Part shown: piece by piece, positions 4,011 through 59,763 of the stretch
Numbering within the stretch: position 1 is the stretch's first letter
How the letters are laid out: each line of letters starts with the position of its first letter
Source: Fibrobacteria bacterium
GTDB lineage: Bacteria > Fibrobacterota > Fibrobacteria > UBA11236
Direction: 5' to 3'
Assembly (NCBI GenBank): GCA_043745805.1
Contig: JAYTSD010000017.1
Span: 160,001-224,000 of the forward strand
DNA length: 64,000 nucleotides
The notes under the pieces: model-generated
Told to the model about the DNA's origin: nothing
Databases searched by the model: none
Seen by the model: only the letters and a program-made list of their open reading frames with translations
Program-made: the position numbers and the translations under genes

Positions 4011-5790
4011 GCTTTTTTACCACCTCTTTTTTTCGGGATTATTTTTGGTTTCTGGGGTAAACGCTGAAATCTTAAATGCGACGGCATCATTATCTTCCGG
4101 TCAGGCGGGAACGGGAGAGGCGATACAATTGACGGTACAAATCGCCACTGACGAGCAAGCTGCAAAACTGCCTTGGCCTCAAATTGAGGGATTAGGTAAC
4201 TTTACGGTAACTAAAAACTCAGGGTCTTCAGCTAATTCTCAAACGACTATTATTAATGGCAAGATTTCACAGTCTTCCGTTTATGTTACCAATTTTATCT
4301 ATACTCTCGTTTCCAACAAACCCGGAACTTATTCCATTGGACCCATTAGCTATAGTTATAAAAACTTTACAAAAACTTTAGGTAGCGCAAGTATTACCAT
4401 TAGCAAGCAAGAATCGGGTTTACAATTAGTGCCGAGCCTATCAAAACGGCAAGCTTATGTTGGGGAGCAGTTAACTTATATGTTACGTATTATTCCTAAT
4501 GCGAATGTACAAAAGGTAACGCCTCCCGATTTTCAAAAAGTCATAGGTGAAAAGTTTTGGTTCCAACACTTAGACAAAGATGTGCAAGCAAAAAATGTGG
4601 TGATCAATGGTCAAAATGCTAGAGTATTTGATGTGCGCATAGTGCTTTTTCCTTTGCTTAGTGGAACAACGGAATTACCTGGTGTGTCCGTTGATTATCA
4701 ACAAATTTCAAGAAGCACGCGAAGACATCGTACCGGATCGATTTTTGATATGCTGGATGATGATGCCTTTTTTGGTGGTGGATCGATTGCCAATTTAACG
4801 GCACAAAGTAGCCCTATGAGCTTGGAAATAAAACCCTTGCCAGGAGGTGCTCCCAGTGATTTTTCGGGTGCGGTTGGGCAATATACTTTGTCCGCAAATA
4901 TTGATAAAAACACCTTGGCTTCAGGTGAGGCTTTGACTTTAACTATTACGATTAAGGGAAATGGTGAGCCGAAAACCATAACTAAACCCTTATTACCTGA
5001 TCTTTCTTCATTCGAAATTTTTGATCCCGAAATTAATTCTAGCACCAATGTAATTGGTAATACTTTGTGGACCACTAAAACTTTTAAATATGTATTAGTG
5101 CCACATAGAGTAGGCAATACGGAAATTGGTCCTATAGGTTTTTCTTTTTTCAATTCCGAAAAAGGAATTTACACTTCAGCAAAATCGCAACCCTATTCCA
5201 TTACTATTAAGCAAGGCAAGGAAATGGAACAACCTCGCAGCTTGGTATCAAATCAAAAGGAAATTACCGAATTAGGATCGGATATTCGTCATATCAAAGG
5301 AAATACCACGGTGCTAATTCGTGAGAATAATTATCTCTATAAGCATTTTGGTTTTTGGTTTCTGTTCTCCCTCGCTCCCCTAACCTATGCGGGCTTGATG
5401 ATTTTTCGGCGTAGACAAATATTGCTGGCTTCGGATGCTTCTTTAAAGCGTAAAAGTCTTGCGAGTTCGGCTTTGAAGAAAAGAATGAAAGAAGCTCGCG
5501 AAGCGATGCAACAAAGCAAAGGTTCGGCTTTTTATAAAGCTTTGGATCAAGCTATTATTGGATTTATTAGTGATAAACTTAATGTTGAATTTCGCGGTTT
5601 AACGCTGCAAGATGCCAAGCAATTGTTGATACAAAAAGGCGCAAGCACACAAATAGCCGAGGAATATGAAGGTTTAATTCAACAATGTGATTTTGGACAG
5701 TTTTCTGGACAAGATAAAAATGAGGAGCATTGGAAAATGGCTCTGCAAAAAGCCGAAGACATTCTCTCTCGTTTGGAGAAAGAAATATGA
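3994..5790 (+). CDS. batD: BatD family protein
   Basis: Repeated Ig-like BatD units (YVGEQL, FSGAVGQY, GEALTLTITIKGNG), C-terminal TM and helical tail. In-frame TTG at 3994 precedes the signal peptide (ORF track starts at 3937). Confidence 0.85.
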   Translation: MKRIGKLFYHLFFSGLFLVSGVNAEILNATASLSSGQAGTGEAIQLTVQIATDEQAAKLPWPQIEGLGNFTVTKNSGSSANSQTTIINGKISQSSVYVTNFIYTLVSNKPGTYSIGPISYSYKNFTKTLGSASITISKQESGLQLVPSLSKRQAYVGEQLTYMLRIIPNANVQKVTPPDFQKVIGEKFWFQHLDKDVQAKNVVINGQNARVFDVRIVLFPLLSGTTELPGVSVDYQQISRSTRRHRTGSIFDMLDDDAFFGGGSIANLTAQSSPMSLEIKPLPGGAPSDFSGAVGQYTLSANIDKNTLASGEALTLTITIKGNGEPKTITKPLLPDLSSFEIFDPEINSSTNVIGNTLWTTKTFKYVLVPHRVGNTEIGPIGFSFFNSEKGIYTSAKSQPYSITIKQGKEMEQPRSLVSNQKEITELGSDIRHIKGNTTVLIRENNYLYKHFGFWFLFSLAPLTYAGLMIFRRRQILLASDASLKRKSLASSALKKRMKEAREAMQQSKGSAFYKALDQAIIGFISDKLNVEFRGLTLQDAKQLLIQKGASTQIAEEYEGLIQQCDFGQFSGQDKNEEHWKMALQKAEDILSRLEKEI

Positions 5791-45369: not shown

Positions 45370-46356
45370 TCATTTGCTTTTAGTAGATGGATTTGTAGCC
45401 TTTAGTATTTCGTCTAAACCTATCTCCACCGTAAAGCGATGTGTTTGTCCTAGTGACAACTCACTGCTTTGACTGGTCTGAAACGCATACTGTACAGCTA
45501 CTCCAGAAAAATTAAAACCCAATCCTCCGGTGAATAGCATATTGTCTCGGCTATTTTGAAATATACTATTGGCCCCACCTCGCACAAAAATGCTCCAATT
45601 ATCTTTGGAGAAACCATACTCCAAACCACCAAAGCCTTTATAATTGCTCGCTACACCATTTATTCCTTCGGTGTATTCCACATCTTTTTTGTTGGCAATA
45701 TCCGTGGCCACAGTAATCTGATGATGAGCATTGCTCCAAATATAACCCAAACCGTAGCGCAGTTCCGGTTCAATTTTATCACCCATCATATCGGCGCCTA
45801 ATGAATGCCCAGCAATACCGAAGCGAAAACCATATGGAAATTGCGTGAGAAATCCTAAATCAAAACCTGTTCCCGCACCATTATCGTTACCGCTGCTCAG
45901 CACATAGCGATTAATACTCACACCTATACTGGTATGTTGAAAGCCCAATAAGTTGTCCCAAAGCTCACGACCACCAGCTAACGAGAAATCATGCTCGACC
46001 CAATTATTCGTTTTGTAAGTATCGGTATTACCTTCTTCCAAATTTGCGTACTGCATCAACCAGCCACCTGCTAAAACTCCCACACCACTGATAGGAAATA
46101 CACTGTTGAAATAATTCACATTCAATCCGGATATATCCTTCAGCAACCAATTCGTTTCCGAAAAAGTAATTCCTTTGATTTGAGGAAGCCCTGCTGGATT
46201 CCAATAAGTGGCCGAGGCATCATTTGCGATGGCGACAAATGCCCCGCCCATACCAAAGCCGCGTGTTCCCATTTGTAAATCCAATGGTTTGGAAATACTA
46301 TATGTTACGCTGAGGGAAATGCCCAATAAGAGTCGAAGCCAATTTTTGTTTTGCAT
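45370..46356 (-). CDS. PorV/PorQ-family outer-membrane beta-barrel (T9SS-associated)
   Basis: GTRGFGMGGAFVAIANDASATYWNPAGL N-terminus, GFDLG, C-terminal LGQTHRFTV; AAGGAGG RBS. Confidence 0.8.
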   Translation of the reverse strand: MQNKNWLRLLLGISLSVTYSISKPLDLQMGTRGFGMGGAFVAIANDASATYWNPAGLPQIKGITFSETNWLLKDISGLNVNYFNSVFPISGVGVLAGGWLMQYANLEEGNTDTYKTNNWVEHDFSLAGGRELWDNLLGFQHTSIGVSINRYVLSSGNDNGAGTGFDLGFLTQFPYGFRFGIAGHSLGADMMGDKIEPELRYGLGYIWSNAHHQITVATDIANKKDVEYTEGINGVASNYKGFGGLEYGFSKDNWSIFVRGGANSIFQNSRDNMLFTGGLGFNFSGVAVQYAFQTSQSSELSLGQTHRFTVEIGLDEILKATNPSTKSK

Positions 46357-46365
46357 AGTCCCTCC

Positions 46366-49300
46366 TTATTTCTTCACCAGCCCAAGGGGCTTGCGGATGA
46401 GTTGTGAAATTTTGCCATCATCAGATACGTATTTAAAGACATAAACATAAAGTCCTGCACCTGCGAATTTGCCGGATACATTTTGCCCATCCCATTCTTC
46501 TGAAAATGTGCCAGCACTTTTTACCGTTTGCAAAGGAATGATTTCCCTGGCCATATCACCTGCTAAATCAAGAATATGCAAGGATACTTTTCCTGCCGCA
46601 GGCAATTGATAATTGAATACCGCAGGTTGATTTTGATGGATAGGATTGTGATTCCAATATACCTTAAGTTTGGTGGGAAGGGGCGCGATATCCGAAGCTA
46701 GATCATATAGGGTAAAATGATTTACAGTTACCGTAACACGATGGTTAATTAAGTCGCGACTTGACTCTCCCGCTTTGACCCACGTAGAACCATCCCAAAA
46801 AACAATGCTCAGGGTTTTGGGGTCAATATCGGGAATACCATCTTGGTTTTTATCCAAATCCGCTTCAGTATACGATAAAGTAAGTGTTACAGGTTTACGG
46901 AATATGGTTTTATCCGGTCCATATTCATGGGGCACGCCTAAAAGCTTAATTTGGTTGTCCAAAGGTTTTGGCTCTTCGATAGGATCCACAATACGAACTG
47001 TTACCTCCAGAGGATGGTATAAAGATTGGGCTGGGATAGTTACCCCGCTGCCATCAGGGCTAGTAATGGTGGCCGCAGAATCGGGCTTCACTAAAACGGT
47101 GACCTTCGGTTCAATAAATGTTACTTCGCCGGATACTGTATCGATATTCCCTGCCCTATCTCCCGTAACTAAGAGGATACGGTTTTTTCCCGGCACCAAA
47201 TTAATGATGCGGCTGAATTTTCCTTGGTCCAACGGAATACCGTTAGGACTGTTGTTAACATGCGCAGCACTATCATTGAGCACAACTAAGTTCACAAAGG
47301 CCATGCCTGAGCCTCCGCTATCGCTAAAATTGCCCTTCATCACCAATTTTTCGCTATATACTTCCCCGTGCACACTATCCGCTCCGCGTACAGGTTTAGG
47401 AAGCAAATTGAATACAGCAATAGGTGCAATATTGTCCAGTACCACAAAGCTTTGTAAGGTGGTATCATTGCCCAAAGCATCACGTCCACGTAAGGAATAA
47501 AGAATTGCTCCTGAAGTATCATTGTTAACATTCACAGTTGTGCTAAACACATTGTCACCCGCCACTAAGTCACCGTTCAAACCGTCATCATGCATAATTA
47601 AGGTTTGAGGAGTCGTCGCAATTTTCGCTGTGTATAACACCATCGCAGAATCCTTATCTAAGCCAGCAATATAATCCAAGCCTAGGGCCGAAATTACGAG
47701 TGGCAAACCTTTTTTACTTATGCTGCCATTATCAGGATAGCGCACCGAAGGCATGCTAATTTTTGGGGCGGAATTATCAATTTGCATAGAGACGATAGAG
47801 GACAAACCATTTTTTCCACTGCCATCCGTGCTACGTATTTGTAATGTGAAAGCCCCATCTTTAAATAATCGCGTATCCCAATTAAAGGTGGAATCCGACG
47901 CAACTTGCCAAGCGCCACCCGCTAAAGCAATTTCATTTTTAACAATGACATCGGGCGCTACAGCCTTAGCCTTAAAGCGTACTGTCGTTAAACCGTTCAC
48001 TAAAGCCGCCGGAGTTGGGTTATTAATAGTTACCGTAGGCGCATTGCGAATATTAAACTTCACAATCGTGGAGAAAGCCGTCTTGCGATTGCTATCGCGC
48101 ACCTGTAATTGCAATTGATGCGCCCCTTCAGTTAGAGCACGAGTGTCTAGGATCAAAGTTGAATCTGTATTCGTAGCTCGCCAGTTACCTCCATCCAGAG
48201 CATAAAAAGTCGAATCTACAAGTGCAGGCGCCATGGCTGATGCGTTGAAAAGCAAAGCTAGTTGCCCAGACACTGTCGAATCCGCCAAAGTTGTCAATAA
48301 GCGAATACTTGGAGCATTTTTACTGAGAACGGTAACCAGTAAAGACCAACCGACTTTAGCATTATTATCCGTGCTTTTAATTTGGAAAGTATGCGAACCG
48401 TCGATCCAAGCCACAGTAACCACGCTATCAACACCCGCAAGGCTCAAGGATGCATTCGCCTTACCGTCGACGTATAAAGAATCTGTAGCAATTGTCGCAA
48501 TGCCTTTAGGCGTAACGGTGTAGGTCAGGGCAACTTTTCCGGAGACCGCAGATCCAGCTATGGGCGTGGTTAACACAACAGTGGGTCCATTCTGTATCAA
48601 ATAACTTACAACTTGGGAAGTCGCTTGCCCACCAGCGGTATTGGTTACCCTGATTTGTACCGTATGATTTCCTTCACTTAAATTCGCCGTATTCCAGGTA
48701 TGCGTTGTTGTCGTAGTCGTAGCAATATAGGCCGCACCATCAATAGATATTTCCGTAACCGTGATGCTACCTGAACCTGCTGTAGTTGTAAAGGCTATAG
48801 TTTGCGTTCCTGAAAGCGTACTACCTGGAGTGGGTGTGCTTAAGCTGACAGTAGGTAAACTGCTGCTACCGCTGCCATTACCAATGGTCAAGGGTACTAA
48901 ACGATCCAAGGCTAAACCACGAATATTGGTTACGCGAAAAATTAAAGTGTCGGATCCGTTGGCCAGATTGGTTACGTTCCAAGATCCAGACCACTCCCCT
49001 GCCCTAGCAATTCGAGTTAAATCAATTTTAGTGGTGGTATCCGATGCACGAAAATATTTTACCGAAACAATGGAATCTACACCTGAACCTGCTAAACCAT
49101 TATCCTGCGCAAAGACACGCAAATTCACAACACCTTCTACGGTTGCATCATCGACCGGAAAAATCACTTGGGAATAGGGTGCGCCTAATTGTAATTCTGG
49201 CCAACCAATTGAGGAATATATACCCCCATTATTATCCAAAATCACACCATCGCTATTGGGAGAATATTCCCAATAATAATCCGCTACGGCTCCCGCTTTG

Positions 49301-50649
49301 GCATCATGATAACGGATGAAAAATCCCATCGGAGAATTTGCAGAAAAGTTTAGATCTTGTGCATCACCCGTGCGGTTAATTTGGAATTCGTATTCATAAT
49401 TTCCTGCTGCAAAACGTTTACCCATTGCTGTTTGACCTGCCGCCACATCAGCGATCCAACTTGTTGCCCCCCAATGTTGATCGTTCGCTAGCACAAAAGC
49501 ATTTTCCGTCGCTTTCAATGCATTTTCTTTGCCTGCATCTAGGATATAATTTCGCACCGCACTTGGACTGGTGGCATAACTTTGTTCTTGATAAACGATG
49601 CAAGTATCACCCGCATCATTAGTAGGATCCACTACTTTAAGACCTACATAAATATTTTTATTGGTAACATCTTCCACAGAGTAAAGTGTGGCCGGTAAAG
49701 TATGCCCATTAAAATCTGTTAGCGTGATACTGCGGCGATATGATCCACGCCAAGCATCATCGGGGGTCGTACCACCGGAAATATTGCCATCGATAATAGG
49801 ATTGCCATTGGCATTGAAGGTGGAATAAAAAGTGAGAAAAGATCGTTTCACACCTAAACGTAAATCAGCCCAACCGGGCAATGAATCAGGGCGTGTTTTA
49901 GAACGATTAGTTTCAATCCAGTTATAAGTTTTATTTCCGCCTTGTTCAAAGGCTTCAATATATAACCCTAATTCCTGGTTATTGGTTACATTGAGATAGG
50001 AATTATTATCATTAATGGTATTTCCATTCAAGGGAATTTTATATTCCGCTTGTACAAAGGAAGATCCTAAATTACTTCCCGATCCGCTAAATACGGCTGC
50101 ATTAGTATTGGCTATCCAAGTCGTACCATTATAGGATCCTTCCTCCTTGGTATTATTATTCGGAAATACTTTTGCATAGTATTCTGCATTATTTATTCCG
50201 GCTCCACCACCTTGCAAAAGATCATCATGATTGCCTCCACCTATGCCTTGATCAAAATGTAGGGTAAGGTAATTTCCTACTGCGGAATTGCTTAAGTTAG
50301 TCGTAATACCAACATAGAGATAATTATCATCATTCATTAAATAAAGCGTTGCAAGTGCAGAATCCGCACCACTCGCTGTTTTCAATCGCACTTGGCGTAC
50401 AAAAGCATTTTTCCACTCATCATATTCTACACCGGCAGATCCAAGCGGTGCATTATTGGTTTTGTCCGTAACACTACCGTTAATTTTAGGGGGAACGCTT
50501 GTGTAAGCACTGTATAATTGTAGAGCTTTGCCTTGTCCGTCCGAAATATGTGCAAAAGATGCTGGGGCGAGTATCGCTATACATCCAAAGCTTGCGCATA
50601 ATGTTTTCCGTATCGTGTGATGAAACGTTTTTTTACATCCGCCTGTCAT
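46366..50649 (-). CDS. Giant secreted protein: two DOMON/CBM9-like domains, Ig-like repeats, DDG Ca-type repeat, ZU5-like domain, FlgD-type C-terminal domain
   Basis: PKING/PIIDG...LYVG...EY.I units; PTV...P..G...SG...WNT....G.H repeats; MHDDGLNGDLVAGDNVFS; YGP...FRKPVTLTLSY...VNHFT; NP...YQLP...ILDLAG...WDG...GLYVY. AAGGAGG RBS before ATG 50649. Confidence 0.8.
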   Translation of the reverse strand: MTGGCKKTFHHTIRKTLCASFGCIAILAPASFAHISDGQGKALQLYSAYTSVPPKINGSVTDKTNNAPLGSAGVEYDEWKNAFVRQVRLKTASGADSALATLYLMNDDNYLYVGITTNLSNSAVGNYLTLHFDQGIGGGNHDDLLQGGGAGINNAEYYAKVFPNNNTKEEGSYNGTTWIANTNAAVFSGSGSNLGSSFVQAEYKIPLNGNTINDNNSYLNVTNNQELGLYIEAFEQGGNKTYNWIETNRSKTRPDSLPGWADLRLGVKRSFLTFYSTFNANGNPIIDGNISGGTTPDDAWRGSYRRSITLTDFNGHTLPATLYSVEDVTNKNIYVGLKVVDPTNDAGDTCIVYQEQSYATSPSAVRNYILDAGKENALKATENAFVLANDQHWGATSWIADVAAGQTAMGKRFAAGNYEYEFQINRTGDAQDLNFSANSPMGFFIRYHDAKAGAVADYYWEYSPNSDGVILDNNGGIYSSIGWPELQLGAPYSQVIFPVDDATVEGVVNLRVFAQDNGLAGSGVDSIVSVKYFRASDTTTKIDLTRIARAGEWSGSWNVTNLANGSDTLIFRVTNIRGLALDRLVPLTIGNGSGSSSLPTVSLSTPTPGSTLSGTQTIAFTTTAGSGSITVTEISIDGAAYIATTTTTTHTWNTANLSEGNHTVQIRVTNTAGGQATSQVVSYLIQNGPTVVLTTPIAGSAVSGKVALTYTVTPKGIATIATDSLYVDGKANASLSLAGVDSVVTVAWIDGSHTFQIKSTDNNAKVGWSLLVTVLSKNAPSIRLLTTLADSTVSGQLALLFNASAMAPALVDSTFYALDGGNWRATNTDSTLILDTRALTEGAHQLQLQVRDSNRKTAFSTIVKFNIRNAPTVTINNPTPAALVNGLTTVRFKAKAVAPDVIVKNEIALAGGAWQVASDSTFNWDTRLFKDGAFTLQIRSTDGSGKNGLSSIVSMQIDNSAPKISMPSVRYPDNGSISKKGLPLVISALGLDYIAGLDKDSAMVLYTAKIATTPQTLIMHDDGLNGDLVAGDNVFSTTVNVNNDTSGAILYSLRGRDALGNDTTLQSFVVLDNIAPIAVFNLLPKPVRGADSVHGEVYSEKLVMKGNFSDSGGSGMAFVNLVVLNDSAAHVNNSPNGIPLDQGKFSRIINLVPGKNRILLVTGDRAGNIDTVSGEVTFIEPKVTVLVKPDSAATITSPDGSGVTIPAQSLYHPLEVTVRIVDPIEEPKPLDNQIKLLGVPHEYGPDKTIFRKPVTLTLSYTEADLDKNQDGIPDIDPKTLSIVFWDGSTWVKAGESSRDLINHRVTVTVNHFTLYDLASDIAPLPTKLKVYWNHNPIHQNQPAVFNYQLPAAGKVSLHILDLAGDMAREIIPLQTVKSAGTFSEEWDGQNVSGKFAGAGLYVYVFKYVSDDGKISQLIRKPLGLVKK

Positions 50650-50861
50650 CGACGCCTCCTTATCATTTTTTTTATCTGGACTCAAAACTCATATAGTAAG
50701 CTTATTTGATTTTTGAATTGGAAATGAGATTCTCTAAAATTGATTATCTAATAGATGAATCTCTTATTACTAGGTAAGATTTTAAAATTGGATATTTTTT
50801 TTGATGTAAGTATTACCGAAATAACTATCCTGATTTCCCAATCAAAAAAATATCTATAACA

Positions 50862-50886
50862 ATTGGAAGCAAGGTTGATGCCTAAA
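50862..50886 (-). promoter_or_regulatory. Sigma-54 (-24/-12) promoter of the giant protein / porV-like unit
   Basis: Minus strand TTTAGGCATCAACCTTGCTTCCAAT: GGCA...TTGCT with exact GG-N10-GC spacing; 21/25 identical to 58985-59009. Confidence 0.8.
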
Positions 50887-50943
50887 AGAATTGGGCGAAA
50901 TTTGTTTAATTGAGTCTATATTAAATTCAAGTAAAAAAAAAGA

Positions 50944-50961
50944 TGAGGCTATTTCACCCCA
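50944..50961. promoter_or_regulatory. Candidate activator binding box 1
   Basis: TGAGGC-TATTTC-ACCCCA, variant of TGGGGT-N6-ACCCCA. Confidence 0.65.
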
Positions 50962-51034
50962 CATTCAGTTAGAAATTTCTTTATAAATATTTTAATCCTA
51001 TATAAACCAAGACTTTAGCAAGCCGTAATAATTG

Positions 51035-51052
51035 TGTAGTGATTTGACCCCA
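51035..51052. promoter_or_regulatory. Candidate activator binding box 2
   Basis: TGTAGT-GATTTG-ACCCCA. Confidence 0.6.
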
Positions 51053-51201
51053 AAAGTCTAAACGAATCGACGACTCTTACTCTATAGTATGTTAATCCTC
51101 TGCTTATTTTTTTCTTATAAAGAAATTTATGCCTTCCTCATTATTATTGACCTATTTTTCTCCGGGTTAAAACAGATGTTAAAGGAGCAAGGAACTTGCC
51201 A

Positions 51202-51620
51202 ATGAACAAAGAAAAAATTTAGTCTCTTGGAGCGGAGGCAAGGATAGTAGCCTAGTGCTGCACGAATTAATTCAGTCCGGTAAATATGCGATCGAAGCTC
51301 TGCTTTGCGTAATCAAAGAAAAAGATCAGAGTATTAATATGCATGGAGTACCCGTTGGAAAAGTACTGATGCATTATTCCGAATTGGGTATAAATAAAAC
51401 AGCCTATGGAGATTTGTTTTTAGAAGCTCTTCCACCAAGTATTGATCGTTGAGGAGAGAATAGGGAATTTCATCCCTTTGTTTTTAATGGCCCGCTCTTT
51501 AAAAATCCCGTAGGTTTCCAAGCGGCTGCTTCGGTTTTGCAACACTTCCGTGACGGAGCTCATGAATTTCTTTTAGGGTTTTGCGATCTAATACCATTAG
51601 AATTTAATACCGTATCTTAG
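51202..51620 (+). pseudogene. Decayed Dph6/MJ0570-like ATP pyrophosphatase (PP-loop) gene
   Basis: ATG 51202 reads MNKEKI*, then a frameshift into LVSWSGGKDS...MHGV...AYGDLFLE; in-frame TGA at 51450; continues GENREFHPFVFNGPLFKNPV...FCDLIP; much shorter than intact members. Confidence 0.8.
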
Positions 51621-51752
51621 TAGTTACCTTCTCTTCAATGGAAATGCAAAAAATTTGCGGGCAATGTTTGCAAAGCGAAATAGAAAATGATAAATTTGGC
51701 TGAACCTCAGGATGCTTTTTGCAATGGTTAACTGGATTGGAAATAGCGTAAA

Positions 51753-53582
51753 TTATTTGCGATAATCGTCGGCGCGTAAATCCGCTTCTTCCATTAATTT
51801 CATCAGCCATTTGCGATCTACATCCAACATTTTAGCAGCTAGCGAAACATTGCCAGCAGTTTTACCTAGCGCCTCTGCAATCGCCTTTTTATCTGCTTGC
51901 TGTCGAACTTCTTTTAAGGTCGTCTGGCCAAAGCCATTTTCGGTAGGAGCATCTCCCCAATCCCATTGCAAATCCTCTGGGCGAATTTGTTGTGTATTGG
52001 AAAAGAGCACAGCCTTTTGCATAATATTTTCAAGCTCGCGAATATTACCGGGAAACCTATAGGTCAATAATTTATTACGTGCTGCAACAGAAAAGGTTTT
52101 AAGAGGTAAACCGAACTGTTGCAGATATTTTTTGAGCAGATAATCGGCCAAGAGCAAAATATCCTGACCACGCTCACGCAGAGGGGGAAGTAGCAAGCCC
52201 AAAACCGATAAACGGAAAAACAAATCTTGCCGAAAGCGCCCTTCCTGAATTTCTTTGGACAAATCCCTATGGGTAGCACAAACGATACGTACGTCCACGG
52301 TTATGGGCTTCGTGCTGCCTATGCGCGTCACTTCGCCTTCTTGTAATACCCTTAACATTTTCACTTGCAAAGAAAGAGGTAGTTCGCCTATTTCATCCAA
52401 AAATAAAGTGCCTTGATGCGCGGATTCAAAAAGACCGACTTTGCGTTGATCGGCACCGGTAAACGATCCTTTTTCATGCCCGAATAATTCTGATTCAATA
52501 AGATTAGCCGGTATAGCGCCACAGTTAAGAGCAACAAAGGTTTTATCCATGCGTTTGGAATTTTCATGCACATAGCGTGCTAGTAATTCCTTTCCCGTTC
52601 CCGTTTCTCCTCGAATAAGCACCGTTGCATCGGTTTTAGCGATGCGTGCGGCTAACTCCATCATCCCTAGCATGGCGGGACTGGCGTAAATCATTCCGCC
52701 CTTTGATTCCATACTCACCTTTTGCAAGCGTTCTATGGTTTCCTTTTGCCTTTGCGCTTCCCCATGGCGGGATAAAATTTCTCCGAAAAGTTTACTCAAG
52801 GTATCACAAAGTAAACGTTCTTTTTCGGTAAAAGGAATGCCGCCACCCAACCTATCCATATAAAGATACCCCAAAGTATCCCCGCCTTCGCGCAAGGCCA
52901 CACATAAGATTGAAGCAATATCATTGGTACGCAAAGAGCTTAAAGAGTTTTTGTCTTCCCATTCGCCTTCATGAAGCAATACAGCATGGCTAGAGGCTTT
53001 AGCCCAATCGATAGCTCGATCGGAAAATCTTTCTAAACCGCTATGCATGGGGTAACGTGCAATAGTATGTCGCAATCCATTCGTCTTATCTTCTATCACA
53101 ACCCGAGCCGCATCGCAACGTAACAAACGAGATACTCCAGATACTAAAGGTGTAAATACATCCGCACCTCTTTCTCGCAACAATTCCACTAAGGCTTCGA
53201 TTAACTCCCCTAGAGGAGCTGACATTTCATCATGATTTATAGGGCTTTCCCCTATTGGAAAGGTATCCGTTTCATTTATAGGCTTATCTAGGTAATGGTA
53301 ACGTGATATTCCTAATTCCAAGTGATCGCCATGCACAAGTGCTAAGGCTTCAGTAACTTTGACTCCATTACATTTGATAACGCTATCCGCAGTAACTACT
53401 TGTAAAAAATATTTACCTTCCCGAAACAAAAAATGTCCCATTCTCTCTTTTAGCCCTTTTCCTTGCAATTGTAAATTGCAATCCCTGGAAGTGCCAAAAG
53501 TAATCAGGCGACCAGAAAGCACAAAGTCAGCCTCTCCATTTTCCAATTTAAGCAATGGATATTGATGGGTTGGCATAATCAA
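51753..53582 (-). CDS. Sigma-54 enhancer-binding protein, FHA-GAF-AAA+-HTH
   Basis: FHA-like N-terminus (NGVKV...LVHGDHLELG), GAF, GETGTGKE, ESELFGHEKGSFTGA, LFLDEIGE, FPGNIRELEN, Fis-type HTH GNVSLAAKMLDV. Confidence 0.92.
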   Translation of the reverse strand: MIMPTHQYPLLKLENGEADFVLSGRLITFGTSRDCNLQLQGKGLKERMGHFLFREGKYFLQVVTADSVIKCNGVKVTEALALVHGDHLELGISRYHYLDKPINETDTFPIGESPINHDEMSAPLGELIEALVELLRERGADVFTPLVSGVSRLLRCDAARVVIEDKTNGLRHTIARYPMHSGLERFSDRAIDWAKASSHAVLLHEGEWEDKNSLSSLRTNDIASILCVALREGGDTLGYLYMDRLGGGIPFTEKERLLCDTLSKLFGEILSRHGEAQRQKETIERLQKVSMESKGGMIYASPAMLGMMELAARIAKTDATVLIRGETGTGKELLARYVHENSKRMDKTFVALNCGAIPANLIESELFGHEKGSFTGADQRKVGLFESAHQGTLFLDEIGELPLSLQVKMLRVLQEGEVTRIGSTKPITVDVRIVCATHRDLSKEIQEGRFRQDLFFRLSVLGLLLPPLRERGQDILLLADYLLKKYLQQFGLPLKTFSVAARNKLLTYRFPGNIRELENIMQKAVLFSNTQQIRPEDLQWDWGDAPTENGFGQTTLKEVRQQADKKAIAEALGKTAGNVSLAAKMLDVDRKWLMKLMEEADLRADDYRK

Positions 53583-54949
53583 TTCAAGTCTTTCGATGAT
53601 CTTTGTGCAAGCATACTGAAAGTTTTTCTTTGAAAAGGAAGCAATGACATTTTCTCTATTTGCAAATCATGGCCCATTTTATCGCGACAAAACAAAATGT
53701 GAGTTCCAAAAACAACTGGAATTCCTACACGTGCCGTAGCAGGTATTAATAGTCGTTGATCTATAAATAAACGATCACACGATTCAGGGTTTTCAATATA
53801 AACCCAACCGGAAAGTTGATTTTGCCCGTGCACCATTTCTTTTAATCGCAAACCTTTTGTTAAATGTTCATTTGATTTATGGGGTAACACGAGTAAGACT
53901 CTTGATTCCTTATTTGCAGAAGTTACTGCAAAAGTTCGTACTTTAGCTGATTGTTTACCGAAATAAAAAGCCAAAGCTAAAGCCGACATGAATCCCAATA
54001 ATATTCCCACACTCCATATTTTTTTTATTCGATTCTTGCGTTGCGAAATACTCGGAAATTGCTCCATCATTTTTAATGCTTCGAGTGAATCCGGATTTTC
54101 TTCTAAGCATTCAGAGAGTAACCAATAAGCTTCTTCCTCCCGTTTAGCAAAAAGAAGATTTTTCGTCGCTTGCATAAGATGCACCGATAATTCTTGAGCC
54201 GTGAACTGTCCGATTAATATTTTCCAATCACTAGAATGGCGAGGAGCTAATTTTGTTTCCCATTCAGTCCAAAATTGAAACGCAGATTCCGGCCTCCGTA
54301 AAGGATTGTCAGCCAATAAAGCGGTAATGGGAATTTCCCATTCTGAACCTAGATCCAATTGGCGCAAAATTCTACCCAAAGCAAATAAATCTGCTTTCAT
54401 AAAATTTATAGCATCACGATCTTCCCATAATTCTGGAGCCATATAGGCTGGAGTTCCCTTTACAGCATCCACAATAGATCGTTTACCTCCATCCATTTTT
54501 TTTGCAAAACCAAGGTCTACCAGATAAATACCATCTTTGGGAGATATTAAAATATTTGCTGGCTTTAAATCACGATGGGCAAAGCCCAAACGATGTAAGC
54601 TTGCCAGAGCAGAAATAATCGCGGAAGCCAGTACTGAAGGATCCCATTGTGGTAAATCTTTTTCCAAAATGGAAAAAAGTGAAACGCCCTTAATCCATTC
54701 CATGACGATGCAAACTTGTTGCCCCCAAATGAAAGCATCGTAAATATCTGGAATACATCCCAAGGGCATTTGCGCTTGAATTTTTGCTTCCTTCAATAAC
54801 TCTTCGCGACGTAAAGGATTCTTTTCTGATAAAATTTTAATGGCTACCCATCGATCAAGTGCAGTTTGGCGCACACGATATACTGAAGAAAAAGAACCTT
54901 CCCCTATTGTCATCGGATGCGAAAATCCTTTGGGCAATTTTGGGATCAT
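53579..54949 (-). CDS. Membrane-anchored Hanks-type Ser/Thr protein kinase
   Basis: IGEGSFS, VAIK, HRDLKPAN, DLG, GTPAYMAPE, DLFALG; TPR-like helix, one TM, C-terminal PEGA-like segment. ATG 54949 overlaps the upstream stop. Confidence 0.9.
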   Translation of the reverse strand: MIPKLPKGFSHPMTIGEGSFSSVYRVRQTALDRWVAIKILSEKNPLRREELLKEAKIQAQMPLGCIPDIYDAFIWGQQVCIVMEWIKGVSLFSILEKDLPQWDPSVLASAIISALASLHRLGFAHRDLKPANILISPKDGIYLVDLGFAKKMDGGKRSIVDAVKGTPAYMAPELWEDRDAINFMKADLFALGRILRQLDLGSEWEIPITALLADNPLRRPESAFQFWTEWETKLAPRHSSDWKILIGQFTAQELSVHLMQATKNLLFAKREEEAYWLLSECLEENPDSLEALKMMEQFPSISQRKNRIKKIWSVGILLGFMSALALAFYFGKQSAKVRTFAVTSANKESRVLLVLPHKSNEHLTKGLRLKEMVHGQNQLSGWVYIENPESCDRLFIDQRLLIPATARVGIPVVFGTHILFCRDKMGHDLQIEKMSLLPFQRKTFSMLAQRSSKDLN

Positions 54950-55617
54950 GGATTTTCTCTTAATTTGCTTTCCGCAAAAGCAAACCAATAAATAATATCT
55001 TCATTTTGCGGCATTGCTCGTAAAGCTTTTAACCAGTGATCATGCGCTGGCTTAAATTCACCGGCTTGCCAAAGTATCATGCCTAAATTAAAATGAGCTG
55101 AAGCATCATTACTATCTAGTTGAAGTACTTTTGCAAATAAGTTTTTCGCTTTAGAAACTTCTCCCAGTTTGCCGTAAATTATACCCGCAAGATTTAATGG
55201 TTGAACATTATGCGGTGCACGTTCAGTAGCCTTGGCTAAAGCAGAAAGAGCTGACAAAGTGTCGTTTTGATTCAAGCAAATGCGAGCCTTTTCTGTATAG
55301 ACATCTGCTAATAAACTCGATAAATCTTCCGTTGGATGTAAACTCCTACACGCTTCAAACTGAACTAAAGCATATGCAAATGCTGAACTATCTGCTTCTG
55401 CGGTTGCTTTTTGTAATAATGCTTTACCTAAACCCAGACGTGCCAAATAATCTTCAGGATTTTCTTCTACGGCTCGAATAAAAAATTGTGAAGCTAAAGG
55501 ATAATCTCCTAAATCCAAACAAGCATAGCCTTTTTCTAAAACTGAATTTTGACAACCATTAACGATAAACAAAATGATTAACAAACCATGAAATGTAAGT
55601 TGCTTTATTTGTTTCAT
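54946..55617 (-). CDS. TPR lipoprotein
   Basis: Lipobox VNGC, multiple TPRs (ARLGLG, NLAGIIY, AHFNLG). ATG 55617 in TAATG overlap. Confidence 0.8.
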   Translation of the reverse strand: MKQIKQLTFHGLLIILFIVNGCQNSVLEKGYACLDLGDYPLASQFFIRAVEENPEDYLARLGLGKALLQKATAEADSSAFAYALVQFEACRSLHPTEDLSSLLADVYTEKARICLNQNDTLSALSALAKATERAPHNVQPLNLAGIIYGKLGEVSKAKNLFAKVLQLDSNDASAHFNLGMILWQAGEFKPAHDHWLKALRAMPQNEDIIYWFAFAESKLRENP

Positions 55618-57209
55618 TATGAACCCCAAGACTTATTCCATTTAACCGCCGCAGAATATTCTTTGTGCGGAATCCAAATGGCTGCATCTTGTGACAAGTT
55701 GGACCATGTTCTAAACATATTAAATTCTAAAGTTAGGTAACCCCAATTCATTAAAGAGCGCTTTAAATTAAATCCTATTTGAGCCCGTTGATCGATGCGT
55801 TTTTTAATTTTATGCAAAGCCGACGAGGAACTATAATATTCCTTTATACCACCATTTTCCACTCGCAATAGAGAACTATAATATTTTCCATCTACTTGAT
55901 TCAAAACTAAGCTCCGAAAACTTTGCGCTGCAGTTGAAGAAGCCGATTGCGGTATTTTCGCCTCCAGCCATGTATAGGATTTGGGATAAATTGTCAAAGC
56001 GTAACCGCTATTGATCTCTCCAATCCAATTCCAATATAGTGGGTGCGTATAGGAAAGGTTCGGAAAAATACTGATAAAACTTTGTGGTGAAATGGCAGAA
56101 GAAATGCTTCCAGGATCATTAGTATAGAGTTGATAAGCCGTAATTTTTTGATAGGGAATACTATCTTGAAATTGATTGTCCTTAAAATGAGTCGGACGGG
56201 GCTTTGAAACGTCATCGACATATAAAAGAGGAATTTTTTCAACTGCTTGATCGACTTGTACTCCGAAAAAAGAAAATAACCAAGCAAAGCCTTTCCCTTT
56301 TTGTAAAAAACCATCATGATACCAAGTTAGCCATCCGGAAGTGAAACGCTTATCTCCATGAGAATTATATTCCGATTCAATGCCTGCATTTGCAAGCATA
56401 AGTCTTTCTTCAGAAATATTGAGATAAGATATTTCCGTGCGGTAAGAATAAACATGTCCTATACTTGTTACCTGTCCCATTTGGCCTGCCAGCGTGAGCG
56501 AAAGACTGTCCCAAATATGTTCGACTTTAAATTTTAAATTGATACGATAATCGAGAGAATCATAGTAATAGTTTTTTCCAATTTCATAACCCACTCCGCT
56601 ACTTAAAGGAAAACGCTTGGGAGATAATAGCGGCCATAACAAATTTCCTTGCTGTTTAAAAAGCCAACCCGTCGAATTGAGTCCTTCTGGAGATTGCGAA
56701 AAAGGGTAATCATATGCCGTAAAATAATTTTCTCGATCATAACCTGAACTCCATTTCAAATCCCATTGTGGAATACGGTTTTCTTCAGGAATAAGTTTTT
56801 GTGGCAAGGAATCACGGAGCTGCGCCGCTTCAATCGACAATCCAGCAATACTGTATAATTTATATCGCTGCTGCAAAACCATATTTCGCATAGGTTGGAA
56901 AGCGGGCGTTCGAATCGTCAGATTAAAAGCCATTGCAGTGTCATAGGAACATTTTCCAAAAGCTGCTTCAGCAAGAAAATAGTATAAGCTGTCTAACGAC
57001 ATTCCATGCTGATAAGCCTGCATAAAATAATCTTGTGCCAAATCATTTTGACCCTTTTGTAAAGCTTGTTGACCCAGCTCCAAAACTTTTTCCACCGATT
57101 TGGAATTTTCTGATAAAGGTATAAAGCCAGATTTTTCCGCGTGCGAAATTGTTCCAACAGATAAATAAACCAATAAAAAAAATATCAGTATGCCAGACAT
57201 ACTATTCAT
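55617..57209 (-). CDS. Exported TPR plus probable outer-membrane beta-barrel protein
   Basis: Signal peptide, N-terminal TPR, then aromatic beta strands ending YSAAVKWNKSWGS. Confidence 0.6.
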   Translation of the reverse strand: MNSMSGILIFFLLVYLSVGTISHAEKSGFIPLSENSKSVEKVLELGQQALQKGQNDLAQDYFMQAYQHGMSLDSLYYFLAEAAFGKCSYDTAMAFNLTIRTPAFQPMRNMVLQQRYKLYSIAGLSIEAAQLRDSLPQKLIPEENRIPQWDLKWSSGYDRENYFTAYDYPFSQSPEGLNSTGWLFKQQGNLLWPLLSPKRFPLSSGVGYEIGKNYYYDSLDYRINLKFKVEHIWDSLSLTLAGQMGQVTSIGHVYSYRTEISYLNISEERLMLANAGIESEYNSHGDKRFTSGWLTWYHDGFLQKGKGFAWLFSFFGVQVDQAVEKIPLLYVDDVSKPRPTHFKDNQFQDSIPYQKITAYQLYTNDPGSISSAISPQSFISIFPNLSYTHPLYWNWIGEINSGYALTIYPKSYTWLEAKIPQSASSTAAQSFRSLVLNQVDGKYYSSLLRVENGGIKEYYSSSSALHKIKKRIDQRAQIGFNLKRSLMNWGYLTLEFNMFRTWSNLSQDAAIWIPHKEYSAAVKWNKSWGS

Positions 57210-57305
57210 ATCGAATTTTTAATTGTAATTTTATTTGCTAAGACCAAAGAATCTTTTCTTAAACAATGTGTTACCGTTAAAAAAATACTTATCAAAAGGA
57301 CAAAA

Positions 57306-57995
57306 TTATCTTGGCCGAGAAATAATGTATTGTAATGTCTGTTTCGATTTTCGTATTGGCTGCCCGGTTTGATTTTCCAAAAAATTTAGCTTCCGACCAA
57401 TTAGATTGAATGAGTTACTGGATAACTTTTCACTCGTCAAAAGTGGGGTGCCATGCGGGGCATGAATAGAAACCGTGGCGGTAGAAAACTGTATAGTGGA
57501 AATAATATCTGAATAATAAGTAACATTATTCGCCATATCTGTTGAATCTCCAATTGCATAAATCTCATATCCATAATTTCCATTTGCGGTATAGCGCAAG
57601 TATTCCGAATAAGTCGCGTCGCCGTTTCCAGGATAAAAGATTGAGTAGGCTTCTGGAGCCCAATAAGAATGCAGCTTAACACTTGCGGCGGAGTCATAAA
57701 AGGCAACGGATCCAAAGGGAAAGACAGAATTTTCCACAGCTAACATATAAGCAATAAATTGTGCCTGTGTCCAACTTTCGGCTGTTGGATAAGTGATTTT
57801 GTCGATTGAATATACAACCAAGGATAACTGTGATTTATGGGCTTTTGTTGAATCGCGAAAATAGTGTTGATTGGTTCTAGCCTTAATTTGCACCCAGTTT
57901 GTAGGTAAAATGATGGAATAACCGAGTGAGGCATCGGTGATAGTTTCAGCGAAAATTGAGGTAACAAATAATACCAGTACCACTAAAAATTTCAT
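57306..57995 (-). CDS. Secreted protein, PsbP-like fold possible, short basic C-terminal tail
   Basis: Signal peptide, GYSIILPTNW start, IISTIQF end of domain, tail VSI...FNLIGRK. Confidence 0.55.
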   Translation of the reverse strand: MKFLVVLVLFVTSIFAETITDASLGYSIILPTNWVQIKARTNQHYFRDSTKAHKSQLSLVVYSIDKITYPTAESWTQAQFIAYMLAVENSVFPFGSVAFYDSAASVKLHSYWAPEAYSIFYPGNGDATYSEYLRYTANGNYGYEIYAIGDSTDMANNVTYYSDIISTIQFSTATVSIHAPHGTPLLTSEKLSSNSFNLIGRKLNFLENQTGQPIRKSKQTLQYIISRPR

Positions 57996-58399
57996 TTTTG
58001 TAAATCCTTAAATTCTAATTTACGTTCTTCCTTTCTATTTTCCATATCTGCCATTGCCTTGTCAACTCGATTCTTTACTTCGGGTGGTAAATCTTTTAAT
58101 GCTTCTAGCTTTTTTTCATGGCGTTCTTTTGGTATGCCTTCAGAAGATGATTTCTTTTTTGTTTTTGATGGAGACTCCTTAATCAGAGGAGCTCGAGCAG
58201 AATCTACTTTTGCACGATTGTCTTCAGGAAGTTTTTTTAATATTTCTGCGTATAGTGCATCATACTTTACTTTAGTTGGAATCACAACGGGGGAGTTATT
58301 TTGCTTTTGAGTAATTGAATTATTTTCTGGATCAGCATTTGCAATTATCGCTAAACAAAGTAGGCTGGGTAAAATTTTAAGACAGTCTTGAAATCGCAT
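57992..58399 (-). CDS. Small exported charged helical protein (paralogue of 58496-58915)
   Basis: GAGG RBS before ATG 58399, signal peptide, LPEDNRAKV and LPPEVKNRV repeats. Confidence 0.65.
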   Translation of the reverse strand: MRFQDCLKILPSLLCLAIIANADPENNSITQKQNNSPVVIPTKVKYDALYAEILKKLPEDNRAKVDSARAPLIKESPSKTKKKSSSEGIPKERHEKKLEALKDLPPEVKNRVDKAMADMENRKEERKLEFKDLQK

Positions 58400-58495
58400 G
58401 TTAACCTCATTGTTACTAGAAAAAGGGAGAAATAACTTTCCCTTTTTCATACCTTAAATCAAAGAAGAATTTTAATTCCCTCTAATGCACAAAGC

Positions 58496-58915
58496 TTAAG
58501 GATTAGCTTTGGCATCCGCTTTTCTTTCATCCAAACGTTTAGTCACAACCTCTTTGGCCTTAGTTACCTTTTCTTTAGCAACATCAGGTAAGCCATTCAA
58601 TGCATCGATAGCTTTTTGTAGATTTAAAATCGCGGCAGCTTTTTTTTCTGTAATCGTAGCTTGAATTTCTTCTGGAGTTTTTCCGGAAGCCTTCATCGCA
58701 TCAATATCAGCTTTAGCAGCTTTAGCTGCAGCTTTAGCTGCAGCTATTTTATCAGCAACACCGGCAGGTAGGTTTTTCATGGCATCAGCAACTTTGGTGC
58801 TAGAAGTAGCCTTGCCCATTGAGTCTGCTGCTGGAGGAGTGCTAGGTTTGCCTTGTGCAAATACACCAGTAGCCAAAGCCATTCCTAAGGTAAGAGTCGT
58901 TAATAATGCTTTCAT
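58496..58915 (-). CDS. Small exported Ala/Lys-rich helical protein
   Basis: AAAGGA RBS, signal peptide ending VFA, LPAGVADKI and LPDVAKEKV repeats. Confidence 0.75.
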   Translation of the reverse strand: MKALLTTLTLGMALATGVFAQGKPSTPPAADSMGKATSSTKVADAMKNLPAGVADKIAAAKAAAKAAKADIDAMKASGKTPEEIQATITEKKAAAILNLQKAIDALNGLPDVAKEKVTKAKEVVTKRLDERKADAKANP

Positions 58916-58984
58916 AATTAATCCTTTTTGAATTGTTAAGAAGCCTTCATTTGTACGATTACTTCAAATCAGGCTTCTCTTTAT

Positions 58985-59009
58985 ATTGGAAGCAACCCTT
59001 ATGCCTAAA
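58985..59009 (-). promoter_or_regulatory. Sigma-54 (-24/-12) promoter of the kinase/activator operon
   Basis: Minus strand TTTAGGCATAAGGGTTGCTTCCAAT, exact GG-N10-GC spacing. Confidence 0.8.
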
Positions 59010-59066
59010 TAAAAACTTCATAATTAATCAAAAAAAGGCATGTTTAAAAAGGAATTCCTTATTTAA

Positions 59067-59084
59067 TGGGTTGTTTTAACCCCA
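59067..59084. promoter_or_regulatory. Candidate activator binding box 1
   Basis: TGGGTT-GTTTTA-ACCCCA. Confidence 0.65.
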
Positions 59085-59155
59085 ATAGGACTTCAAATCA
59101 TCAAGTATCATTGATAAGTCATTGAAAAATATGAGTTACACAAAACAAGCTTTCT

Positions 59156-59173
59156 TGGGGTGAAATGACCGCA
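59156..59173. promoter_or_regulatory. Candidate activator binding box 2
   Basis: TGGGGT-GAAATG-ACCGCA. Confidence 0.65.
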
Positions 59174-59199
59174 ACTAAATTTCAAACTTAAGGATAAAA

Positions 59200-59763
59200 T
59201 CAAGAAAATAAATTCTGAAACAAGAAAAATGAACCGCATACCCCTAAGCCCAAACTAACATACCACAGAGGTTTTTTCTTCACCAGCACTGCAATAGCTG
59301 ACATGGCAATTGCGATCTGAAAAAATGTTACCCCGCGGGCAAGTACACTGTGTTGTGCTAAATGTTGTTCTCCTGATTTTTGTTTTTCTTCCGCTTTTTC
59401 TTGAATTTCTTTTTGTTCTTTTTTGTAATCGGAAATTTTTTCAATGTCTTCCTTAGAAGCTTGTTTTCCTAAGACGGTAAGCAATTCTAATTTATTGGAA
59501 AGTATTGCCGACTTAATACCTTTGGCTTGATAATACGACCATTGATCAGAAGCCTGTAATTGCTCAATCATCGCTTCATTAGCATGATGACCCGCTAATA
59601 AAGCAGCGATAGCGGCAAGCACAGCGAGCAAAGCTGAGCTTAATGCAACTTGCATAACCCAACTCACTCCATTTTTATGTCCCTCACCATGGCCCGCTTC
59701 ATGGGCGGCCTCATGAATATTTTCATGCAAATGTTCGGTGGGAACTTCGATTTCTTCCGGCAT
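59200..59763 (-). CDS. DUF4337-like membrane protein
   Basis: His-rich N-terminus, TM, ASDQWSYYQAKGIK, coiled coil, FQIAIAMSAIA and two TMs. Confidence 0.75.
   Translation of the reverse strand: MPEEIEVPTEHLHENIHEAAHEAGHGEGHKNGVSWVMQVALSSALLAVLAAIAALLAGHHANEAMIEQLQASDQWSYYQAKGIKSAILSNKLELLTVLGKQASKEDIEKISDYKKEQKEIQEKAEEKQKSGEQHLAQHSVLARGVTFFQIAIAMSAIAVLVKKKPLWYVSLGLGVCGSFFLFQNLFS

Follow-up and report, generated by a model that had tools for sequence, protein, structure and literature searches.

Classical sigma-54 promoters, of the types represented by glnAp2 with NtrC, nifH with NifA and pspA with PspF, are accompanied by upstream activator sequences. Enhancer-binding proteins (EBPs) with an FHA domain were reportedly described in Myxococcus xanthus by Jelsbak, Givskov and Kaiser in 2005. 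Here we report on two putative sigma-54 promoters, site 1 and site 2, on the minus strand of a 64,000-nucleotide stretch from the genome of a Fibrobacteria bacterium (GenBank assembly GCA_043745805.1, contig JAYTSD010000017.1, positions 160,001 to 224,000; this whole stretch is called the window). Site 2 heads seven closely packed genes on the same strand that end with the genes for a Hanks-type kinase and an EBP, and site 1 precedes the next transcription unit downstream of this operon, about 867 bp past the stop codon of the activator gene. The sequence features described below make it probable that both sites are functional sigma-54 promoters and form one small regulon with paired palindromes, the activator of which would most likely be the operon-encoded EBP, thereby activating its own synthesis.

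The locus shares with the classical systems the GG-N10-GC core (TGGCAY-N5-TTGCT), the paired dyad-symmetric sites located upstream at about 100-200 bp, an activator of the AAA+ class whose loop is of the GAFTGA type and whose C-terminal helix-turn-helix (HTH) is of the Fis type, and the inclusion of the activator gene in the operon, which can thereby activate itself. It differs from them in that the box, TGGGGT-N6-ACCCCA, is family-specific, that the two boxes lie 80-91 bp apart instead of being adjacent, that an A replaces the T before the GG in the window's genome, and that the activator has no receiver domain. As in the M. xanthus proteins, an FHA-type domain at the N-terminus takes the place of the receiver, and the partner is presumed to be a kinase of the Hanks type; unlike in that species, the kinase gene lies directly upstream of the activator gene within one operon, the activator also has a GAF domain, and the Arg and Ser that canonically bind phosphothreonine appear to be missing from its aligned positions.

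The mechanism class is that of a textbook sigma-54 promoter with its EBP; the case is mechanistically ordinary, and comparison with the relatives supports it well. What is new here is the definition of the box, together with its genome-wide specificity, and the presence of a second promoter upstream of the gene for a giant surface protein. Sequence alone yields a complete testable unit, comprising promoter, boxes, a candidate activator and kinase, and two target units, for a phylum in which regulatory genetics is nearly absent; a full-text literature search gave no publication dealing with sigma-54 regulation in Fibrobacter or related bacteria. In addition, the locus is a further example of a Hanks kinase paired with an FHA-like sigma-54 activator, a combination that recurs but on which there is hardly any experimental work.

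The promoter pair and its upstream palindromes

The twin 25-mers, ATTGGAAGCAAGGTTGATGCCTAAA at site 1 and ATTGGAAGCAACCCTTATGCCTAAA at site 2, lie 8123 bp apart and are identical at 21 of 25 positions (coordinates of all features are given in Table 1). All four mismatches fall into the 5-nt spacer, i.e. they affect 4/5 positions there and 0/20 positions outside (Fisher p = 4e-4), and the identical 10 + 10 nt around the diverged spacer point to constraint. The minus-strand reading common to both sites is TTTAGGCAT-N5-TTGCTTCCAAT with GG-N10-GC spacing; both sites read AGGCAT-N5-TTGCT, with GG and GC exactly 10 nt apart, as expected for the -24/-12 elements of a sigma-54 promoter. When the C of the GC is counted as -12, transcription would start at 50857 and 58980, respectively, where the minus-strand base is A in both cases, and the predicted leaders would comprise about 208 nt at site 1 (to the ATG at 50649) and about 65 nt at site 2 (to the ATG at 58915). 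A preliminary description of the window had listed the pair, its distance of about 8.1 kb, the confinement of the differences to the spacer, the canonical spacing on the minus strand, the orientation towards the downstream gene and the A at both predicted starts, and all of this was recovered from the window sequence, with both sites lying upstream of same-strand genes. Within the window, the 23-mer pattern with at most three mismatches has two matches, compared with 0.11 expected, and one of 100 shuffled sequences reached two.

The whole genome (3,949,059 bp in 50 contigs, 40.0% G+C) was scanned for the sigma-54 machinery and for similar sites. It encodes rpoN, the product of which matches TIGR02395 with 403.4 bits (cut-off 277.35) over model positions 4-434 and without stops. 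The Sigma54_activat family (PF00158) matches 21 places, 15 of which are true EBPs (192-250 bits), with the other six at 36 bits or below. A crude gene map was built from non-overlapping open reading frames (ORFs) of at least 90 aa; the 3113 ORFs cover 88.4% of the genome and leave 11.6% outside genes. The pattern GGCA[CT]-N5-TTGC has 61 matches in the genome, 21 of them intergenic, and for 19 of these 21 a same-strand ORF starts within 300 nt. Given the small non-genic fraction of the genome, this is an about three-fold enrichment of sigma-54-type sites at places where promoters would be expected. The longer motif GGCAT-N5-TTGCTTCC occurs at the two window sites and nowhere else in the genome. 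The genome-wide scan for TAGGCAT-N5-TTGCT that had been proposed in the preliminary description gave three copies; the motif is thus rare, and all of its copies are intergenic, each facing a gene. The third copy, TTAGGCAT-N5-TTGCT at C45:128023-128039, lies outside the window, 43 nt upstream of the gene for a secreted protein of 283 aa whose tail is PEP-CTERM-like. This copy was rejected as a regulon member, having no nearby palindrome with at least 10/12 matches and no paired palindromes, and it probably belongs to the regulon of another activator.

Alignment of the two upstream regions in register on the promoter revealed a second common block, which starts 75 nt upstream of the 25-mer and which, as the relatives showed, is half of an 18-bp palindrome, TGGGGT-N6-ACCCCA. 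Each promoter is preceded by a proximal and a distal palindrome of this kind, with their centres some 95 and 185 bp ahead of the inferred start. At a threshold of at least 10/12 matches, the genome contains 76 such 18-mers (71 with 10 matches, five with 11 and none with 12), and two of the five with 11 matches are those of site 2. Two palindromes within 150 bp of each other are present, genome-wide, only at the two promoters, so that, with paired boxes and a promoter as its definition, the regulon has exactly two members in this genome. Among the remaining palindromes, just a single one has anything like a loose -24/-12 element within 260 bp, namely CGGTAAATCATTGGCT, which is a poor example. 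Judging from sequence and position, the palindromes are most likely upstream activator sequences for an EBP.

The same arrangement is found in related genomes. Homologues of the 530-aa protein encoded by the fourth gene of the site 2 operon are present in 14 of the 41 genomes searched, the window's own genome counted, and the order of the seven genes is kept in the relatives where the contig allows. A further contig search gave 12 loci, 11 of which come from metagenome-assembled genomes assigned to Fibrobacterota, Fibrobacteres or Fibrobacteria; seven of the 12 were duplicates and were left out. In total, 31 non-duplicate loci (263,603 bp) were scanned on both strands for a module, defined as GG[CT]-N7-TTGC with a palindrome of at least 10/12 matches starting 60-100 bp upstream. 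The scan yielded 14 modules, set in a background of 141 promoter-pattern matches and 44 palindromes overall. The proximal palindrome starts 70-82 bp upstream of the GG in all 14, and a distal palindrome is present 159-171 bp upstream in 13 of them. When the two window sites are included, the distance between proximal palindrome and GG is 79-82 bp in 15 of 16 modules, and the consensus of the 16 is TTGGCAT-N5-TTGCTT. A loose pattern, GGGG-N8-CCCC-N52-66-GGY-N7-TTGC, was too noisy over the 41 genomes, with 36 matches compared with 26 for the reversed control.

The position ahead of the operon was inspected in the 16 loci that have a homologue of the 530-aa protein and enough upstream DNA (L013, L023 and L046 are cut by contig ends). 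A module was found there in ten of them (L018, L019, L020, L021, L022, L025, L027, L042, L048 and L050) and a weaker one, with a proximal box of 9/12 matches, in two more (L028 and L029); none was found in L024, L026, L052 and L053, which are the most distant loci or are not syntenic. Orthologous operons thus carry a TGGCAY-N5-TTGC promoter at the same place, together with the same palindromes. Taken together, the presence of rpoN, the rarity of the motif, the paired upstream palindromes and the promoters of the orthologous operons support the sigma-54 reading of the preliminary description.

Two modules about 800 bp apart are present in L018, L020 and L050. The upstream ones, at oriented positions 4351, 4395 and 3743, respectively, would drive the gene for a conserved small lipoprotein with the motif GKVT-x-CH-x-PPGNPANAH, of which no homologue was found in the window's genome. 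In L034, a module and the gene for a 142-aa paralogue of the gene 1 protein (63% identical, E = 4e-62) lie directly upstream of an orthologue of the giant protein. Hence, at least two genera, and not just the window's genome, show this tie of the regulon to the giant protein.

The candidate activator and its proposed action

The last gene of the operon encodes a protein with the features of an EBP, i.e. an AAA+ domain (PF00158, E = 1.2e-72), a GAFTGA-type loop and a C-terminal HTH (HTH_8, E = 9.3e-5). The sigma-54 contact loop reads GSFTGA in the window activator and GAFTGA or GSFTGA in eight orthologues. Activator orthologues are 48-64% identical, and their HTH is nearly invariant, which fits the conserved palindromic box. 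The intact contact loop and the near-invariance of the HTH support the operon-encoded activator as the protein that would bind the palindromes.

The N-terminus of the activator is FHA-like, with a marginal score for PF00498 (21.0 bits, cut-off 20.7), and a profile built from the eight orthologues matches the FHA domain of Ki-67 (E = 5.6e-8). In the HMMER alignment to Ki-67, which may be shifted in the loop, members of the activator family have S, T, G or A in place of the FGR arginine, and Ser is missing from the position three residues ahead of the invariant His. A Gly-Arg located five residues earlier is invariant, and the Asn-Gly is retained. The activator gene begins within the kinase gene, with an overlap of 4 bp, and the gene at the kinase position encodes a Pkinase domain in 6/6 relatives tested, which makes an input from the kinase plausible.

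On the basis of these features, the following mechanism is proposed. Signals would enter through the Hanks kinase and the GAF domain, which are the likely inputs. The operon-encoded activator, with its FHA-like, GAF, AAA+ and HTH_8 domains, would bind the palindromes as dimers via the Fis-type HTH, assemble on the DNA, loop to the sigma-54 holoenzyme at -24/-12 and open the promoter using ATP. At site 2 it would switch on its own operon and, since this promoter drives the gene of the activator itself, the circuit should reinforce itself. At site 1 the same activator would turn on the genes for the giant surface protein with Ig repeats and a PorV-like outer-membrane protein, which suggests that the uncharacterised envelope proteins of the operon and the giant surface protein act in one surface-related programme. 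The step from the kinase to the FHA-like domain appears to be the weakest link of this mechanism.

A more far-reaching version can be formulated, which we regard as unlikely. The regulon might constitute a Fibrobacterota-specific switch for envelope remodelling, in which a membrane-bound Hanks kinase acts on the activator via the FHA-like domain, which would have lost the canonical way of reading phosphothreonine. The activator would be assembled from two dimer sites about 80-90 bp apart, so that the DNA would loop between the boxes as well as to the promoter, and it would co-induce a BcsC/PelB-like exporter set with tetratricopeptide repeats (TPR) and a barrel, together with the giant adhesin or the small lipoprotein, depending on the lineage.

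Opposing observations and rival explanations

Several observations weigh against two functional promoters under the control of the operon-encoded activator. The palindromes of the window are imperfect (10-11/12 matches), and the GG is preceded by A in both promoters of the window, but by T in all 14 modules of the relatives. The leader of site 1 would be long, about 208 nt, and the fold of a 218-nt stretch gave no sign of structure (z = -0.31). Of the eight loci with orthologues of the giant protein, a full module is present at one, a single palindrome lacking canonical -24/-12 elements at three and nothing of the kind at four. The FHA-like domain appears to have no canonical phosphothreonine-binding Arg or Ser at the aligned positions, which makes textbook kinase control doubtful. 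The genome encodes 14 other EBPs, and the palindromes were assigned to this activator by gene neighbourhood and co-conservation. Finally, the proximal palindrome of site 1 (50943-50962, minus strand) is followed by T9 and passes a simple terminator scan.

The rival that survives best accepts both sigma-54 promoters as real and assigns the palindromes to a different regulator, either another of the 15 EBPs or a repressor, with the operon-encoded activator acting elsewhere. It draws its strength from the number of EBP genes in the genome and from the neighbourhood as the ground on which one of them was chosen, but it would have to explain why the module travels with the activator operon in 10/16 loci (12/16 with the weaker versions), why the HTH of the orthologues is nearly invariant and why the paired palindromes occur at the two window promoters only. 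We therefore consider a different regulator improbable.

Somewhat less probable still is that site 1 is an inactive leftover. The region of site 2 would have been duplicated, the paralogue of gene 1 at site 1 would have been lost, and the giant gene would now be transcribed from elsewhere or by read-through. Such a duplicated arrangement is indeed present in L034, and the long leader of site 1 would be in line with it. The two window promoters also share an A before the GG and a CCAAT after the TTGCTT, the latter absent from the relatives as well; as these are not family features, they reflect either common origin or a constraint of this particular genome. Against an inactive copy stands the distribution of the differences, in that the promoter mismatches are confined to the spacer and the palindromes are kept at the same offsets, whereas the intervening DNA is only 37-39% identical in register (22/57 and 27/73 positions, compared with 28/110 and 33/100, or 25-33%, in flanking controls). 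Conserved elements amid diverged DNA are the pattern of continued selection and not of decay, and no remnant of the small gene was found upstream of site 1. A recent duplication of the whole regulatory region was rejected, because only the functional blocks are alike and no copy of the whole region is visible. The proposal of selection rather than recent duplication in the preliminary description fits these data. Its claim that conservation is limited to the contact positions needs correction, since the identical block extends past the classical contacts, into TTTA before the GG and CCAAT after TTGCT.

It is very improbable that the palindromes are structural or terminator-like elements that stand next to promoters by accident, as the terminator-like match of the site 1 proximal palindrome would suggest. 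The region of site 2 contains no such match, the palindromes of the relatives are not followed by T runs, and the distance of 79-82 bp to the GG in 15/16 modules is hard to explain for terminators. Under the preferred reading of the palindromes as activator sites, the proximal palindrome of site 1 with its T9 might in addition stop read-through from the upstream operon.

Chance similarity, or recognition of the sites by another sigma factor, is least credible of all, because even though GGCAY-N5-TTGCW, the core by itself, does not reach significance in the window (two found, 0.73 expected, two reached by 14 of 100 shuffled sequences), the extended motif and the pairing of palindromes are found at no other place in the genome, conservation of the module extends to the relatives, and a scan of 58850-59300 found no sigma-70-like site at site 2.

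The two transcription units

Table 1. Positions of the promoters, palindromes and genes in the window
Feature	Position	Strand	Description
Site 1 sigma-54 promoter (predicted)	50862..50886	-	-24 GG 50882-50881, -12 GC 50870-50869
Site 1 proximal palindrome	50944-50961		TGGGGTGAAATAGCCTCA (minus strand); 10/12 matches; starts 79 bp upstream of GG
Site 1 distal palindrome	51035-51052		10/12 matches; starts 170 bp upstream of GG
Site 2 sigma-54 promoter (predicted)	58985..59009	-	-24 GG 59005-59004, -12 GC 58993-58992
Site 2 proximal palindrome	59067-59084		TGGGGTTAAAACAACCCA (minus strand); 11/12 matches; starts 79 bp upstream of GG
Site 2 distal palindrome	59156-59173		11/12 matches; starts 168 bp upstream of GG
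Gene 1	58496..58915	-	139-aa secreted Ala/Lys-rich protein; no family match; conserved in relatives
Gene 2	57992..58450	-	152-aa exported protein; no family match
Gene 3	57306..57995	-	229-aa exported protein; weak PsbP-like match below Pfam cut-off
Gene 4	55617..57209	-	530-aa protein; no family match
Gene 5	54946..55629	-	227-aa TPR protein
Gene 6	53579..54988	-	469-aa Hanks-type Ser/Thr protein kinase; Pkinase E = 4.8e-38
Gene 7	51753..53582	-	609-aa sigma-54 EBP; FHA-like, GAF, AAA+ (loop GSFTGA), HTH_8
Giant-protein gene	46366..50649	-	1427-aa secreted protein; Ig-like repeats; C-terminal FlgD-Ig-like domain
PorV/PorQ-like gene	45370..46356	-	328-aa outer-membrane protein; 10 bp after giant gene

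The start of the giant protein was taken as the ATG at 50649, which is preceded by AAGGAGG. Its match to FlgD_ig is weak (20.1 bits, cut-off 27), and the PorV-like protein scores just below the cut-off for NF033709 (PorV_fam; 87.4 bits, cut-off 90). A search of the giant protein for Por_Secre_tail gave no match at E <= 0.01. An assignment of the site 1 unit to type IX secretion, with the giant protein as cargo and the second protein as PorV shuttle, was considered and is not supported; there is a resemblance to the family, with both scores below the cut-offs.

In one genus, orthologues of the giant protein are preceded by a lone palindrome and then, at about the usual distance, by a decayed -24/-12-like string (L035 near 1279-1372 and L031 near 1310-1400). 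The string in L035 reads TGACAT and has one extra spacer base before TTGCTT. These may be cases of a dying module.

No recognisable gene lies in the gap that separates the activator gene from site 1 (50887-51752). All ORFs in it are at most 68 aa long, including a 65-aa ORF on the plus strand that has no Pfam match, and the gap as a whole has neither Pfam nor Rfam matches, the Rfam search having covered 50500-51800 at E <= 1. Comparison by tblastn with the genes that lie 3' of the activator gene in the relatives gave a best E of 0.95, and with the 139-aa gene 1 protein a best E of 0.67, so that the ORF, Pfam and tblastn searches lend no support to a decayed gene at this place. The gap also includes a third string with -24/-12 spacing, TGGCAAGTTCCTTGCT at 51186-51201 on the minus strand, which has no upstream palindrome. 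Chance is a sufficient explanation for it, as GGCA-N6-TTGC occurs 172 times in the genome.

In the site 2 operon, the protein encoded by gene 4 is predicted to have a helical, TPR-like N-terminal part followed by a large beta-barrel (predicted local distance difference test score, pLDDT, 78.4). The top Foldseek matches of this model were 9b8a (BcsC) and 9h80_M (PelBC), with template modelling (TM) scores of only 0.25-0.28 and 8-9% identity; the Foldseek E-values were 7e-7 to 5e-6, at TM scores of 0.24-0.28. The likeness is a lead only. The TPR-like helices and the large outer-membrane-type barrel would be shared with exporters of the BcsC/PelB type, but the operon differs from their setting in having no polysaccharide synthase genes. 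Within the putative leader of the operon, an 8-bp inverted repeat, AGAAGCCT ... AGGCTTCT, is present on the minus strand at 58939-58978, with arms 24 nt apart, which would place it at about +3 to +42 of the transcript inferred for site 2.

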